This document shows, piece by piece, positions 3,140 through 21,904 of a stretch of 31,849 nt of DNA. The stretch is from an uncultured Candidatus Saccharibacteria bacterium (GTDB taxonomy: Bacteria > Patescibacteriota > Dojkabacteria > SC72), in NCBI GenBank assembly GCA_964648955.1, contig CAZYNJ010000003.1, positions 1 to 31,849 on the forward strand. Reading direction: 5' to 3'. Each line of letters begins with the position of its first letter. Position 1 is the stretch's first letter. The notes beneath the pieces are model-generated. The model did not search any database, was not told the origin of the DNA, and saw only the letters and a list, made by a program, of their open reading frames with translations. A program made the position numbers and the translations under genes.

Positions 3140-3583
3140 ATGAGAATAAAGAATAAGAAGGCATTTTTTAACTATAAGATATTGGAATCCTTAGAAGTAG
3201 GGGTAGTTTTGACTGGAGCTGAGGTTAAATCTTTGAGAAATAATAGAGGAAACTTGGCAGATGCTTTTGTAAAGAAGATAAGGGGAGAATTTTGGTTAGT
3301 TAATATGGAAATTCCTAGGTATAAGTATGATGGGAATCCTGATTATGATGCTCATAGATCAAGAAAGTTACTTCTAAAGAGGAAGGAAATGGTCAAATTA
3401 GAGAGTAAGATGAAACAGGGAAGGCTTTCTTTAATCCCTATCAGTGTGTATTTGAAAGGAAGAAGAGTGAAGGTAGAGATAGCATTAGCAAAAGGAAAGA
3501 AGAAGTATGAGAAGAAGAATGCTCAGAAAGAGAAGGATTTAGAGAGAGAACTACATAGAGAGAAAAGAAAATATATGATATAA
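3140..3583 (+). CDS. smpB: SsrA-binding protein SmpB
   Basis: Motifs NKKAFFNY, GVVLTGAEVKSLR and RSRKLLL, plus the basic C-tail GKKKYEKK. Confidence 0.97.
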   Translation: MRIKNKKAFFNYKILESLEVGVVLTGAEVKSLRNNRGNLADAFVKKIRGEFWLVNMEIPRYKYDGNPDYDAHRSRKLLLKRKEMVKLESKMKQGRLSLIPISVYLKGRRVKVEIALAKGKKKYEKKNAQKEKDLERELHREKRKYMI

Positions 3584-4032: not shown

Positions 4033-6579
4033 ATGGTAGACATATCTTCTCAAGATACAGTTATATACTCTCAAGTATTCGGGCCTAGTATAGAGGTGGA
4101 AAGTAGTCCTGGAGAAACAGTCTCCTATACAGATAATACATATGGAGATTTAAGTAATCATTGGTACGATAATGTTCCTTGGGGATGGATATCTTTTAGT
4201 ATTCTGGTAATAAGTCTTACTGTTGGGGCTTTCCTTTGGCTTAAATCTAAACTTCTAAGGAAAGATAGCAATGAAAAGGTAAGAGATACCGTTACTTTTG
4301 AGGTTAAAGTATCTAGGCAGAATGAAATAGAGATAGGAGTAGCTGAACAAATGTTTGCTAACCTTGCAGGGATAGGGGGAAGGGGGAAAGGTCTTGCAAA
4401 ACTTTTTAGTGTAGAAAATGGGATTAGTTTTGAGGTTGTTGGATTACCAGGGGAGATAAGGTTTTTTGTTAATTGTCCTAGAAAGTTTGCAGATTTAGTA
4501 GAAAAGCAGATATTAGGGTCGTACCAAGATGCTGATGTAACAATAGTTCCTGATTATAATATATTTGCAGAAGGAAGTAGGGTTGATTTTGCTGCATTGA
4601 GATTAGATGAAGAGGAATATTGTCCGATTACGACATATGAAGATTTTACAGGAGATCCACTTTCTAACATTTTGAGTTGTTTAAGTAAAATATCAGAGGG
4701 GGAAGGTGTTTTGGTACAGGTAATAGTATCTCCTGCTGGTTCTGAATGGCAGAAAGCCGGAAGATCTTTTGTAAAGAATGTAGAAGAGAGTAAGTCTGAT
4801 CCTGAAAGAAAGAGTATGGGGGTCTCTCAAGAGAGGGTAGAAGCGATTAATAAGAAAATTGCAAAGCCCGGTTTCAGAACGGAGATTAGGATTGTTACTA
4901 GTGCTGCCAATGATGATTTAGCTAAAATGCATTTAGAAAATATTGTAGGAGCTTTTGATCAGTTTAATAATCCTCAGGTTAATAAGTTTAAGAAAGTAAA
5001 GCTTAATAAGTCTCGTGAGAAAGAATTTGTAAAAGATGTTCTATTCAGAAGAGCCCCATACAAATCAAGTATGATTTTAAATATGGAGGAGCTAGCCACA
5101 ATATTTCATTTTCCCAATAAGGATATTGATACTCCTAATATTCAATGGTTACTTTCTAAGGAGGCTCCTGCAGCTAATATGATAAGTACGGATATTGATT
5201 CTAAGGATACTATTTGGCTTGGGAATAACTATTTCAGAGGGCGGAGGAGACCTGTTTGTTTCAAGAAGGATGATAGGAGAAGGCATTCCTACATATTAGG
5301 ACAAACTGGTTCTGGTAAATCTTGGTTAATGATGAGAATGATCATTCAAGATATTTATAATGGCGATGGTGTTTGCTTTATAGATCCTCACGGAGAAACT
5401 GCAGAATTGATTTTAGATAGGATTCCTCCAGAGAGAGCAGAAGATGTTATATATTTCAATGCTGGAGATTTTGATAGACCGTTTGGTTTTAACCTTATGG
5501 AATTCTATAACGAGCAGGATATGCATAGGATTGTTAATAGCTTCATAGCTCTACTTATCAAGCTTTTTGATCCTAATCAACAAGGTTTTGTTGGTCCAAT
5601 CATGCAACAGGCAGTTCGAAATTCCATGCTTACCGCAATGTCAAAAGAAGGATCGACCTTAATAGAGGTTGTTAGGATACTACAAGATGAGAATTGGGTA
5701 AGAGAACATTGGTTACCTTTGATCAAAGACGAACAGGTGAAGAGATATTGGACAGAACAGATTGCAAAAACAGATCAGAAGACCAAATCAGAAACAATGG
5801 GTTACTTTTTAAGTAAATTTGACAAATTTACGACTAATCTTGCGATTAGAAATATCATAGGACAGTCTAAATCATCTTTTGATTTTAGGGATGTTATGGA
5901 TAATAGAAAGATATTGATAATTAATCTTTCTAAGGGTATTTTAGGTGATGAGAATATGTCCTTTTTAGGATTACTTATAGTTCAGAAACTTCTCTCTTCT
6001 GCTTTGAGTAGGGAGGATATACCAGAGGAACAGAGGAGTGATTTTTTCTTCTATGCTGACGAATTCCAAAATTTCACTACCGAAGAGTTTGCTACGATAT
6101 TGTCTGAAGCTAGGAAATATCGTTTAAATTTAACTTTGGCACACCAATATATTGGCCAATTACCAGAGAACATTAAGGGTGCTGTTTTTGGTAATGTTGG
6201 TACATTACTTATTGCTAGAACTAGTACTGAAGATGGAGAATTTTTAGCTCCCCAATTTGAACCTGTTTTAAAGAATACGGATATTATCAATCAGCCAAAC
6301 TTCCATTTTTATGCAAAGATGCTTGTGGATGGTATGTATCCTGCACCATTTTCCTTAGAAACAGGATATGGTTCTAAGTTTCCAGAATCTAAGTTCGATC
6401 TTCCTGTTAACAAGGAGGTTTCTGCCTTTATTAAAGAATTTTCTAGAACCAAATATGGTAGGGATGTTAACTTAGTTAACAAGGAGATAGGGGAGAGATC
6501 CAAGATAGAAAAGAGTTCTGCAAAGCCTAAAGTCCCTTCTGTTGGAGGTGTGGGGTCTACACTCAGGAGTGGTTTATAG
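4033..6579 (+). CDS. Membrane-anchored VirD4/TraD/HerA-like (DUF87-type) P-loop ATPase, 848 aa
   Basis: N-terminal TM helix, Walker A GQTGSGKS, 'FIDPHGE', Walker B 'FYADEFQNF' and 'LSEARKYRLNLTLAHQY', all typical of coupling-protein-like ATPases widespread in CPR. Confidence 0.85.
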   Translation: MVDISSQDTVIYSQVFGPSIEVESSPGETVSYTDNTYGDLSNHWYDNVPWGWISFSILVISLTVGAFLWLKSKLLRKDSNEKVRDTVTFEVKVSRQNEIEIGVAEQMFANLAGIGGRGKGLAKLFSVENGISFEVVGLPGEIRFFVNCPRKFADLVEKQILGSYQDADVTIVPDYNIFAEGSRVDFAALRLDEEEYCPITTYEDFTGDPLSNILSCLSKISEGEGVLVQVIVSPAGSEWQKAGRSFVKNVEESKSDPERKSMGVSQERVEAINKKIAKPGFRTEIRIVTSAANDDLAKMHLENIVGAFDQFNNPQVNKFKKVKLNKSREKEFVKDVLFRRAPYKSSMILNMEELATIFHFPNKDIDTPNIQWLLSKEAPAANMISTDIDSKDTIWLGNNYFRGRRRPVCFKKDDRRRHSYILGQTGSGKSWLMMRMIIQDIYNGDGVCFIDPHGETAELILDRIPPERAEDVIYFNAGDFDRPFGFNLMEFYNEQDMHRIVNSFIALLIKLFDPNQQGFVGPIMQQAVRNSMLTAMSKEGSTLIEVVRILQDENWVREHWLPLIKDEQVKRYWTEQIAKTDQKTKSETMGYFLSKFDKFTTNLAIRNIIGQSKSSFDFRDVMDNRKILIINLSKGILGDENMSFLGLLIVQKLLSSALSREDIPEEQRSDFFFYADEFQNFTTEEFATILSEARKYRLNLTLAHQYIGQLPENIKGAVFGNVGTLLIARTSTEDGEFLAPQFEPVLKNTDIINQPNFHFYAKMLVDGMYPAPFSLETGYGSKFPESKFDLPVNKEVSAFIKEFSRTKYGRDVNLVNKEIGERSKIEKSSAKPKVPSVGGVGSTLRSGL

Positions 6580-6598
6580 TGAAAAAATCCTTATTATC

Positions 6599-6607
6599 TG
6601 GTAAAAT
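6599..6607 (+). promoter_or_regulatory. Extended -10 promoter element for tRNA-Ile(UAU)
   Basis: TG-G-TAAAAT ending 11 nt before the tRNA 5' end. Confidence 0.6.
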
Positions 6608-6618
6608 CCATTTGTATT

Positions 6619-6695
6619 GGGAGTGTAGCTCAGGTGGTTAGAGCGCGGTTCTTATAAAGCCGTGGTCGGCAGTTCGAGTCTGCCCACTCCCACCA
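6619..6695 (+). tRNA. tRNA-Ile (anticodon UAU)
   Basis: Full cloverleaf: GGGAGTG/CACTCCC acceptor, A73, encoded CCA, D-stem GCTC/GAGC, anticodon stem CGGTT/AGCCG around loop CT-TAT-AA, T-arm GGCAG-TTCGAGT-CTGCC. Confidence 0.93.
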
Positions 6696-6726: not shown

Positions 6727-7617
6727 CTACAGTGCTTTGAGGTTTCTTTCCTTCTCGGGTTTAGATCCTTCTACTAGATTGAGATATTTCTCTGTTGTAG
6801 AAAGTCTCTTGTGTCCTACTAGCTTTGATACAGTTACTAGGCTTACTCCATTAGCTAAGTGATGTGCTATAAATGTATTTCTTAAATCATTAACCTTTGC
6901 ATTTTTAATACCTGCTTTTTCAAATGCCTTATCTATTGTTGTTCTAATATTTCTTACTAAAAGAGGTCTTCCATTCTTTGTAATGAAAAGAGTCTCATCC
7001 TCTGTTTCTGGTCTAATTTCTAAATAGTCTTGTACTGCTTTAAATGCAGAGTTATTTAGAGGAACTTTTCTTGAATCATGACTACCTGCAGCTTTTATAT
7101 AAAGATAGTTTAATTTCTTGTCTTTTGAAGTTCGTATATCTTCTAAGTTTAGATTGGCTAATTCACCAATTCTAATACCTGTTTGAAGTAAAAGCTCTAC
7201 GATAGAGTAGAGACGAGTATCAACTCTACTAACATCTCTAAGAGCTCTGTATTCCATCTCTGAGAGTACTCTAGGTGGTTTTATATCGAATTTAGGATGT
7301 GAGAGCTTTTCTGATGGATTATCAGGAATAATTCCTTGTTCCAAGAGGTACTTATAATAGGTCCTAGTGCTATTAGTCTTTCTAGAAATACTCTTTGGGG
7401 TATAGTTACTATCCTCTAAATGTTTTTTATACTTCTCTAAGTCTTCAATTGTTGTTTTTGCTAAGTTCGAAATACCATTTAAAGAGAAAAAATTAAGGAG
7501 TTGCTCAATGTCTTTAGAGTAGGCAATAATGGTAGCTTCAGATCTACCTTTTTCTCTGAGTTCGATTATGAATCCTTTATGTATCTCTGCGAATTTAGGA
7601 TTATTGATTTTAACCAT
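6727..7617 (-). CDS. XerC/XerD-like tyrosine recombinase, 296 aa
   Basis: N-terminal SAM-like domain (RSEATIIAYSKD), catalytic-domain motifs TGIRIGEL, NDLRNTF and LVGHKRLSTTEKY. Confidence 0.88.
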   Translation of the reverse strand: MVKINNPKFAEIHKGFIIELREKGRSEATIIAYSKDIEQLLNFFSLNGISNLAKTTIEDLEKYKKHLEDSNYTPKSISRKTNSTRTYYKYLLEQGIIPDNPSEKLSHPKFDIKPPRVLSEMEYRALRDVSRVDTRLYSIVELLLQTGIRIGELANLNLEDIRTSKDKKLNYLYIKAAGSHDSRKVPLNNSAFKAVQDYLEIRPETEDETLFITKNGRPLLVRNIRTTIDKAFEKAGIKNAKVNDLRNTFIAHHLANGVSLVTVSKLVGHKRLSTTEKYLNLVEGSKPEKERNLKAL

Positions 7618-8226: not shown

Positions 8227-8301
8227 CGCGGGGTAGAGCAGTGGAAGCTCGTCAGGCTCATAACCTGGAGGTCGTCGGTTCGAATCCGACCCCCGCAACC
8301 A
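8227..8301 (+). tRNA. Initiator tRNA-fMet (CAU)
   Basis: CGCGGGG/CCCCGCA acceptor with C1xA72 mismatch, A11-U24 pair, loop CT-CAT-AA, encoded CCA. Confidence 0.93.
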
Positions 8302-8304
8302 ATT

Positions 8305-8892
8305 CTACTTCTGTGGTTTCTTGAAACGGATATATGGGAATGTTCTGTGTTTCCCCTTTGTATCCATGCCGTATCCTTCTACCCAGTAATCTGGTATCTC
8401 GAATCCACAATAGTCAATCGGAACATCAATCTCTCTTCTGCTCTCTTTCGAGAGTAATGCACAGATCTTTAGAGATTTTGGTCTTCTAGCGCTCAGAATT
8501 TCAAGAAGTTTTTTCATAGAATATCCAGTATCTATCATATCCTCAATGATTAAAACATTTTTTCCTTCTAGATCAATACTGGTCTCTCGGGTGATTTTTG
8601 GGTTTCTAGAAGATTCTGTTTCACTACCGTAACTCCCAATTCCCATAAAGTCTATATATGTACCATAATTATTATAACCATTAAATTCATTAACTTTTGT
8701 TAACTCTCTTGATAAGTCAGCTCCAAAGAATACCGCTCCATTGAGAATTATTAACAAAACAAGATCTCTTTCTTCATCTTTGTAATCTTCTGCAATTTTC
8801 ACTCCAAGTTCTGTTACCTTTTCCTGTATTTGTTCTGATGTTAAGAGTATTTTATAATCTTTTGTTTTTACGAAATCTTTTTTTTGAGTCAT
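8305..8892 (-). CDS. hpt: Hypoxanthine(-guanine) phosphoribosyltransferase
   Basis: PRPP-binding motif VLIIEDMIDTGYS, plus 'LNGAVFFGADL' and 'GFEIPDYWVEGYGMD'. Confidence 0.9.
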   Translation of the reverse strand: MTQKKDFVKTKDYKILLTSEQIQEKVTELGVKIAEDYKDEERDLVLLIILNGAVFFGADLSRELTKVNEFNGYNNYGTYIDFMGIGSYGSETESSRNPKITRETSIDLEGKNVLIIEDMIDTGYSMKKLLEILSARRPKSLKICALLSKESRREIDVPIDYCGFEIPDYWVEGYGMDTKGKHRTFPYIRFKKPQK

Positions 8893-9589: not shown

Positions 9590-9666
9590 GGTGGGATAGC
9601 TCAGTTGGTTAGAGCATGGGATTCATAAACCCAAGGTCGGCAGTTCGATTCTGCCTCCCACTACCA
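9590..9666 (+). tRNA. tRNA-Met (CAU), probably the elongator
   Basis: GGTGGGA/TCCCACT acceptor, loop TT-CAT-AA, encoded CCA. No C1xA72 mismatch. Preceded by TG-A-TATAAT (9572-9580). Confidence 0.88.
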
Positions 9667-9701: not shown

Positions 9702-11564
9702 ATGAACAAGGGAAAAAATAGTCAGTCTAAGAAAAAGAAGATTGTAGATATAAGGAGGATTCCAATAAAGAAAAAAGGTGGAATAAAGGGTGGGGGAATT
9801 CTTCTGACGATAGGTATAGCTCTTCTTCTCTCATATAGCGTGTATATGTATCAAAGATTTCAGAATCAAGGAGAACAAATTTCCTTAAGTGAGGTGGTAT
9901 TAATGATTAGCGATGGGGAGTATGAAGGTATTACAATCAAGGAATCAGAAGTAATTTTAATAGGAGAGGCTGAGAAAGATACTGTTTTTGCATTAATCCC
10001 AGAGGGTACTGATTTCTATACTGTTCTTTCCGAGGCAGACATAGATATTAAAACTCTCGAGAATGATTTTTATGAACCTAATATACAGTTTACATTTGGT
10101 GATTTCATTTCCTTACTTTTCTTAGTCGCAGGGGTATTTCTTGTATATATGCTATTTAAGAATATGCAAGATTCCAGTGGCAAGATTATGGATTTTGGAA
10201 AGAGTAAAGCAAAGTTAATGCTGGGGAAGAAATCAGCTATGTCTTTTAAGGATGTTGCGGGAATAGAGGATGTTAAAGAAGAGTTAGTGGAGATTGTTGA
10301 TTTTCTCAAACATCCTAAGAAATATATTTTGGCAGGAGCTAGAATTCCAAAGGGGGTTCTTTTAGTAGGTGCTCCTGGTACGGGAAAGACACTGCTTGCT
10401 AAAGCAGTTGCTGGAGAAGCTAATGTTCCATTTTTCCATACATCTGGATCAGAATTTGAAGAAATGCTAGTTGGTGCAGGTGCTTCTAGGGTTAGAGACC
10501 TTTTTACTAAGGCGAGGAAGGTTGCTCCTTGTATCATCTTCATTGATGAAATCGATGCTGTTGCTAAGAAAAGAGGTCGTGCTTTGTATTCTGGAGCGGG
10601 AGAACAGACACTTAACCAGATTCTTGTAGAGATGGATGGTTTGGAAGAAAGAGCAAATGTCATTATCTTAGGTGCTACTAATAGACCGGATGTACTAGAT
10701 CCTGCAATTTTAAGACCTGGGAGATTTGATAGGGTTGTTACAGTACAGATGCCAGATTACAGTGAAAGAGAGAGTATATTGGGAGTTCACTCAAAGAACA
10801 AGAAGTTTAGTAAAAATGCTGATTTGAAGATAATCGCAAAGAAAACAATAGGATACTCTGGGGCTGATCTGGAGAATCTTTTGAATGAAGCAGCAATAAT
10901 GACAGCTAAAAGAGGGGAGAAAGAGATAACACAGGAAGATCTTCAAGAGGCTTTCTTAAAGGTAAAACTAGGAAGAAAGAAGAAAACAGGAAGGGAGGAA
11001 GAAGACATTAAAAAGATTGCATATCACGAAGCAGGACACGCAATTGCTTCTAAGTTTGTAAAGGGTTCTTCTCCTGTAGAACAGATATCGATAATTTCTA
11101 GAGGCATGACAGGAGGGGTAACAGTATATATTCCGGAGAAGGATACAATTCTTCATACCAAGACTCAGCTTTTAGCAAAACTAAGAACCGCTGTTGCAGG
11201 TCAAATATCGGAAGAAATATTCTTTGGGGAGATATCGACTGGTTCTTCCGCAGATATTCAAGATGCCACTAGGGTAGCTAAAGCTATGATAACCCAATAT
11301 GGAATGAGTGAAAAATTAGGATTTGTTCAATATGGGGATATGGAAGAGGCTAGTACAATTGGTTATTCATATGGAGGTGGAAGGGATTTTAGTGAGGATA
11401 CAGCCAAATCAATTGATCAAGAGGTTAAGAGATTTATGGATGAGGCGCAGGAAGATGTAAGGAAGATATTGAGAGAACATAAGGATTTAGTCGAGAAGTT
11501 GGTGGAAATGCTTTTAGAGAAAGAGGTTGTAGAAAGGAAAGAGTTTGAGAAGTTGTTTGAATAA
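9702..11564 (+). CDS. ftsH: ATP-dependent zinc metalloprotease FtsH
   Basis: Two TM helices, Walker A GAPGTGKT, Walker [12 protein letters not shown] '[20 protein letters not shown]' and HEAGH zinc motif. Confidence 0.97.
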
Positions 11565-16825: not shown

Positions 16826-18375
<1,550 letters not shown>

Positions 18376-18454: not shown

Positions 18455-18531
18455 GGGCGTATAGCTCAGTTGGCTAGAGCGCAGTCCTGATAAGACTGAG
18501 GTCCCAAGTTCGAACCTTGGTACGCCCACCA
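18455..18531 (+). tRNA. tRNA-Ile (GAU)
   Basis: GGGCGTA/TACGCCC acceptor, stem CAGTC/GACTG, loop CT-GAT-AA, CCA. Confidence 0.96.
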
Positions 18532-18616: not shown

Positions 18617-18765
18617 GATAACAAGAAGAGAAGGTAAAACTTTGAATCTTGAGTGCAGAATGTTTGCATCTTTGTAACTGTTGGGGTAGGTCCAATATAT
18701 AAACAGTAAAAGACCAGAACATTTCAAGTTGTACATTTAAAACTGAATAGTAAGGCAATTTTCAA

Positions 18766-21904
<3,139 letters not shown>

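Follow-up and report, generated by a model that had tools for sequence, protein, structure and literature searches.

A tRNA-Ile(UAU) as the probable sole reader of AUA in a Dojkabacteria lineage in which tilS was not detected

We consider it very probable that the tRNA-Ile gene with a UAU anticodon at positions 6619 to 6695 (+ strand) of the DNA analyzed here, a stretch of 31,849 nucleotides referred to below as the window, encodes the sole AUA-decoding tRNA of a Dojkabacteria bacterium; that the gene is transcribed from its own promoter; that its product is charged with isoleucine by a type 2 isoleucyl-tRNA synthetase (IleRS) encoded on contig C12; and that the bacterium has neither TilS nor tRNA-Ile2(CAU). 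AUA would be read by a U34-A pair, which would make both TilS and tRNA-Ile2(CAU) unnecessary, and AUG would be rejected by the ribosome, as in Mycoplasma mobile, or by a modification of U34 or U36.

The window corresponds to contig 3 of an assembly of 640,632 bp in 72 contigs, with 33.6% G+C and 85.6% completeness, from an ultra-small bacterium of the Dojkabacteria (WS6), a lineage within the Patescibacteria/CPR. The assembly contains 35 tRNA genes, about 10 being missing from it; only two have a CAU anticodon, and both are located in the window. Because of this incompleteness, our claims of absence for the window's genome rest on its relatives. These include a closed genome of the same family (G001, hereafter the closed relative), a single contig of 724,554 bp that carries 45 tRNAs covering all 20 amino acids, together with a tmRNA.

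The UAU tRNA gene and its surroundings

ARAGORN located five tRNAs in the window and called tRNA-Ile(tat) at exactly 6619-6695 (+), and the Rfam tRNA model matched the same interval at 66 bits, the gathering score being 29. The predicted RNA forms a canonical cloverleaf with a 7-bp acceptor stem, a GCUC/GAGC D-stem, a T-arm, and discriminator A. Its anticodon stem contains a U30-G40 wobble pair, the loop is CUUAUAA with the anticodon at 6653-6655, and the CCA end is encoded in the genome at 6693-6695. The intact cloverleaf, TAT anticodon, and encoded CCA that the earlier note had described were thus confirmed by ARAGORN, Rfam, and the sequence. The extended -10 element that the note had assigned to the gene was also recovered, as part of a promoter-like site at 6579-6607 (+) with a -35-like GTGAAA, a 17-nt spacer, and a TG-extended -10 TAAAAT, which ends at 6607, 11 nt 5' of the start of the tRNA. 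This site is a match to the consensus only; our scan found one such site versus 0.4 expected in shuffled sequences.

Covariation provided further evidence on the gene. In an alignment of 24 UAU orthologues from within the order, 99.4% of the stem cells were paired and compensatory changes were present in 8 of the 21 pairs; the anticodon arm, including the U30-G40 pair and the CUUAUAA loop, showed no variation. Judged from these sequences, the UAU tRNA is real, functional in appearance, and under selection with structural constraint. Its isoleucine identity is predicted from the anticodon, from the GGG...CCC-A acceptor end that it has in common with tRNA-Ile(GAU), and from the codon evolution described below. 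An exact 33-nt core of the tRNA occurred in 54 species genomes, which had been submitted as Candidatus Dojkabacteria or, in the case of automated third-party assemblies, as "uncultured Candidatus Saccharibacteria". Homologues of FtsH proved too conserved for such a taxonomic assignment. We compared the tRNA with the Ile1, Ile2, and Met classes as possible origins; the pairwise identities to all three were 58-77%, and none was favored.

The gene is flanked on its 5' side by a homologue of VirD4/TraG-like T4SS coupling ATPases (4033-6579) and on its 3' side by a gene for a XerC/D-like tyrosine recombinase of the phage-integrase family (6727-7617). The block from the bPH gene to ftsH, which includes the VirD4-like protein (65% identity), the tyrosine recombinase (77%), DivIC, EF-P, and FtsH, was collinear between the window's genome and the closed relative, and the latter contained exactly Ile(tat), two Met(cat), and Ile(gat), ordered as in the window. 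Since the gene order around the UAU tRNA is kept in the closed relative, we regard this tRNA as a core gene and not as mobile cargo. The VirD4-like and XerC/D-like genes, which are likewise kept in place, look core themselves rather than parts of an integrated element. Across the order, a pattern that combines the D-arm with the UAU anticodon gave a single match each in 32 of the 41 genomes; of the 27 genomes of high quality, 25 had it. An elongator CAU pattern was found in 38 of the 41, once each except in two fragmented assemblies, and the UAU and elongator CAU tRNA genes were always 2-5 kb apart.

tilS, CAU tRNAs, and the meaning of AUA

The earlier note had proposed that AUA is decoded independently of TilS, and this proposal was well supported by our searches of the window's genome, of 40 relatives including the closed one, and of the phylum. 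In the contigs of the window's genome, TIGR02432 and PF01171 matched only MnmA and one weak PP-loop protein (contig C52); the 370-aa match is MnmA, with 365 bits to the MnmA equivalog. Within the family and order, 41 genomes, three of them single-contig (G001, G021, and G027), had no tilS match above the cut-off. TIGR02432, which models the N-terminal part of TilS, is sensitive in this phylum: of 201 other Patescibacteria, 84 yielded a tilS match, with scores of 136-207 bits. A tblastn search of the window's genome and the closed relative with two Patescibacteria TilS proteins gave a best E value of 0.04.

The two CAU tRNAs of the window had been interpreted in the earlier note as fMet and elongator Met, and their features agree with this assignment. 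The tRNA at 8227-8301 (+) has the C1/A72 mismatch and occupies the same place in the closed relative; since this mark identifies one CAU tRNA as the initiator, the other must serve internal AUG codons. The latter tRNA, at 9590-9666 (+) directly upstream of ftsH, has no GGGCC acceptor stem of the Ile2 type and has an A31/A39 mismatch, as does the Met-elongator class of tilS-positive Patescibacteria, in which A31 stands opposite a non-complementary nucleotide 39. Two tilS-positive genomes (G062 and G080) have three CAU tRNAs each, clustered within a few kb of tilS, and their Ile2-type tRNAs combine a GGGCC-type acceptor stem with Watson-Crick pairing of 31 with 39. In the closed relative, CAU is found in two tRNAs only; a third, Ile2-type CAU tRNA is absent. 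To the extent that these sequences can tell, the canonical lysidine system, consisting of tilS and an Ile2-type CAU tRNA, appears to be lacking in the lineage. The reader of AUU and AUC, tRNA-Ile(GAU), is encoded in the rRNA spacer (18455-18531, +; ARAGORN and Rfam).

Several observations concern the neighborhood of these genes. All three CAU tRNAs of G062 lie within 1.5 kb of tilS (C1, about 510-512 kb; L117/L122), and the single CAU tRNA found in G100 lies about 100 nt from tilS (C1, about 734 kb; L120). The UAU lineage has a comparable small cluster adjoining ftsH (9702-11564, +; Pfam Peptidase_M41 and AAA), composed of the UAU tRNA and the initiator and elongator Met tRNAs. The window also encodes an hpt-like phosphoribosyltransferase (8305-8892, - strand; Pfam PF00156). 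As context, tilS, hpt, and ftsH form a cluster in Bacillus subtilis, and tilS of many bacteria lies in such a neighborhood; no tilS is present in the neighborhood of the hpt-like gene and ftsH in the window. SmpB is encoded at 3140-3583, and ARAGORN found no tmRNA in the 72 contigs of the window's genome; the closed relative has its tmRNA at 344076-344486, and that of the window's genome is probably unassembled. The 23S rRNA match at 18765-21903 spans 3139 nt versus the 2925 positions of the model, and the roughly 200 nt of insertions would be expansion segments or an intervening sequence.

The survey of the phylum that the earlier note had suggested was carried out on 201 Patescibacteria, of which 84 had only tilS, 85 had only the UAU pattern, none had both, and 32 had neither; the sample includes non-independent relatives, and a Fisher P value therefore overstates the evidence that tilS and the UAU pattern exclude each other. 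Accordingly, 58% of the sample was without tilS and 42% had the UAU pattern, and no family was seen in which the two were mixed. The UAU search demands a canonical D-arm, and many of the 32 genomes with neither are probably pattern misses; those that we checked belong to families whose other members have the UAU tRNA. Two genomes with the UAU pattern had TilS-like matches below the cut-off: G185, on short contigs (C120 and C105; 86.8 and 62.7 bits), and G169 (C3:37697-38206; 54.6 bits). These fragments could represent a decaying tilS, a transitional state, or contamination.

AUA is used heavily in the window's genome. Its frequency is 40.0 per 1000 codons; it represents 44% of the Ile codons, is present in 529 of 530 ORFs, and is the commonest codon of the Ile box. 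This places the genome at the upper end of the range that has been quoted for bacteria, with Borrelia burgdorferi at 39 per 1000 (PMC12514573). In the gene at 21-632, our recount gave 10 ATA, 7 ATT, and 3 ATC codons, so the earlier figure of 10 ATA among 20 Ile codons was correct. We then aligned the codons of 308 reciprocal-best orthologue pairs between the window's genome and the closed relative. ATA codons of the former were aligned with ATA (27.7%), ATT or ATC (26.4%), codons for Val (17.6%) or Leu (12.4%), and ATG (2.3%). The profile of ATT was the same, with ATG at 2.0%, and ATG itself was aligned with ATG at 54%. Since the substitution profile of ATA is that of ATT, AUA means isoleucine in this lineage.

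Charging of the tRNA and separation of AUA from AUG

The sole full-length IleRS of the window's genome is a protein of 986 aa encoded on contig C12 (L004:1474-4434). Its scores were 520-600 bits against IleRS2 structures (yeast cytoplasmic, Thermus, and P. megaterium) versus 230-316 bits against type 1 enzymes, and its best PDB matches were the yeast cytoplasmic enzymes. The DUF5915 C-terminus is present and the zinc-binding (zinc-finger) domain is absent; by these matches, the enzyme is classified as type 2, that is, eukaryote-like. The earlier note had inferred a probably adapted IleRS, to be inspected for the Arg of M. mobile, and in this form the inference was not supported: the zinc-binding domain is missing from the C12 enzyme, which makes a test for the Trp-to-Arg substitution (Arg865) inapplicable, and type 2 enzymes also occur in genomes with tilS. 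DUF5915, the type 2 C-terminus, was found in 198 of the 201 Patescibacteria, tilS-positive ones included. Type 2 IleRS therefore predates the switch as a pre-existing trait, and we rejected it as a UAU-specific adaptation.

The wobble pocket in ARD3 corresponds to Q961, R964, K965, and L969 of P. megaterium IleRS2, in which the Arg-Lys pair is critical (PMC13752280). We aligned this region from 12 tilS-positive and 13 UAU genomes. The Arg-Lys pair was retained in all 25 genomes. The Gln was retained in 12 of 12 tilS-positive versus 9 of 13 UAU genomes, with Arg in its place in the window's genome; the Gly before the Leu, in 11 of 12 versus 5 of 13; and a downstream D-R motif, in 10 of 12 versus 5 of 13. 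As a lead from a small, phylogenetically structured sample with no universal signature, this suggests a relaxed or altered wobble pocket in the UAU genomes.

Searches for MnmE and MnmG in the window's genome, and for MnmG in five near-complete relatives, were negative, which suggests that the usual xm5U34 pathway is lacking. The window's genome does encode the 2-thiouridine-34 synthase MnmA (contig C9, L001:979-2091, - strand), and s2U34 may be formed in this lineage with no xm5 side chain attached.

In helix 44 (h44) of the 16S rRNA encoded in the window (18231-18249 and 18320-18332), we observed compensated A1405-U1496, A1409-U1491, and G1410-C1490 pairs beside A1492/A1493, with E. coli numbering assigned by eye and a search pattern that matched 37 of the 201 genomes. 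Those relatives of the same family that matched have A1409/G1410 as in the window but keep G1405, and A1405 was found elsewhere in the sample only in G161. A1409 was present in 11 of 14 UAU versus 2 of 22 tilS-positive genomes; however, the corresponding counts by family were 4 of 7 versus 2 of 11, and we rejected the h44 variants as a ribosomal adaptation to the UAU tRNA, the link being weak and confounded once families are counted.

Three other accounts of the UAU tRNA would give it a lesser or a different role. The canonical tilS and tRNA-Ile2(CAU) could be located in the ~15% of the genome that was not assembled, with the UAU tRNA as a redundant extra; an assembly that is 85.6% complete, in 72 contigs, and short of about 10 tRNA genes leaves room for this, and Lactobacillus casei and Lactobacillus plantarum do have both systems (PMC3575796). 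We nevertheless judge it very unlikely, because tilS was found in 0 of the 41 genomes of the order, three of them single-contig, the closed relative has no third CAU tRNA, tilS and the UAU pattern coincided in 0 of the 201 genomes of the phylum sample, and the tblastn search was negative. The VirD4-like coupling protein and the phage-integrase-family gene on either side of the tRNA might instead mark it as cargo of a mobile element or prophage that only supplements the decoding of the host. This would be hard to reconcile with a collinear bPH-to-ftsH block with flanking proteins 65% and 77% identical, a single copy in each of 32 of the 41 genomes, a constant spacing of 2-5 kb from the Met tRNA, and a closed relative without any other AUA reader, and we give it almost no credence. 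Finally, pairing of U34 with G as well as A is possible in principle, and AUA might stand for another amino acid, such as Met, as it does in many mitochondria, or be read ambiguously; the exchange of ATA with ATT/ATC, Val, and Leu codons just as for ATT, and with ATG at 2.3% versus 2.0% for ATT and 54% for ATG itself, makes this exceedingly improbable.

A different question is how AUG is avoided by a UAU tRNA that is the sole AUA reader. It is a real possibility, if short of an even chance, that the decoding role is as we propose but that a modification of U34 (or U36), such as pseudouridine, restricts pairing to A, instead of the ribosome policing an unmodified U34. With 40 AUA per 1000 codons, misreading of AUG would be costly; the invariant anticodon arm of the 24 orthologues fits the recognition site of an enzyme; and in eukaryotes, tRNA-Ile with pseudouridine is charged by an IleRS of type 2. 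However, the negative searches for MnmE and MnmG in the window's genome and for MnmG in the five relatives count against a modification, and no candidate enzyme was found; MnmA is encoded, but the tRNAs on which it is known to act have U35. Moreover, unmodified U34 works in M. mobile (PMC3575796).

Known systems and implications

Decoding of AUA by a UAU tRNA without lysidine is already known from a few other bacteria; what stands out here is how widely it is distributed and how very heavily AUA is used. TilS is generally portrayed as an essential enzyme that nearly all bacteria possess; a literature search that joined lysidine or TilS with the names Patescibacteria or CPR found no relevant paper. 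In eukaryotes, the cytoplasmic tRNA-Ile(UAU) has pseudouridine at positions 34 and 36; it resembles the arrangement described here in combining a UAU anticodon with a type 2 IleRS. A 2026 paper refers to tRNA-Ile(UAU) as "rare cases" (PMC13752280).

Since the C12 enzyme is of type 2 and has no zinc-binding domain, the closest precedent is provided by Bifidobacterium and Neorickettsia rather than by M. mobile. Bifidobacterium and Neorickettsia are tilS-less and have a tRNA-Ile(UAU) and a eukaryote-type IleRS (Taniguchi et al. 2013, discussion, PMC3575796); they have in common with our lineage the lack of tilS, a genome-encoded UAU tRNA-Ile, and a type 2 IleRS without the zinc-binding domain. 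Our lineage differs in that it belongs to another phylum, uses AUA as its most frequent Ile codon (40 per 1000), and has a type 2 IleRS that is ancestral to the whole phylum and not a special acquisition, and in that about half of its very large phylum has the arrangement. In the type 1 IleRS of M. mobile, Arg865 of the zinc-binding domain, at the position of E. coli Trp905, confers recognition of UAU; U34 of the M. mobile tRNA is unmodified, and rejection of AUG by the ribosome of this species has been demonstrated (PMC3575796). M. mobile is similar to the window's genome in having a reduced, AT-rich genome without tilS and a UAU tRNA as the sole AUA reader; however, the domain that carries Arg865 in its type 1 enzyme is missing here. 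In B. subtilis, a GAU-to-UAU mutation of tRNA-Ile1 suppresses a deletion of tilS (PMC3919564), and a UAU tRNA-Ile can thus replace TilS and tRNA-Ile2 in a bacterium; that case is a laboratory mutation in a host with type 1 IleRS, whereas the gene described here is natural and conserved.

TilS appears to be gone from this lineage and from about half of the phylum as sampled, with a UAU tRNA in its stead, and in the lineage studied here AUA is the most frequent Ile codon. For annotation, this means that the CAU tRNAs of such genomes must not be named Ile2, and arguments for TilS as an antibacterial target presuppose its universality. The use of 40 AUA per 1000 codons without a known U34 pathway constitutes a demanding natural test of how a U34 tRNA and the ribosome avoid AUG. 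As a tentative and rather unlikely extension, the Patescibacteria may be cleanly split into a lysidine half and a UAU half, a split enabled by the phylum-wide type 2 IleRS, with the UAU half reading its top Ile codon without the MnmE/MnmG pathway. If this is true, these bacteria would separate AUA from AUG by an undescribed means, such as a new modification, a changed wobble pocket of IleRS, or a ribosomal adaptation, and the portion of bacterial diversity that can do without TilS would be far larger than is stated in the literature.
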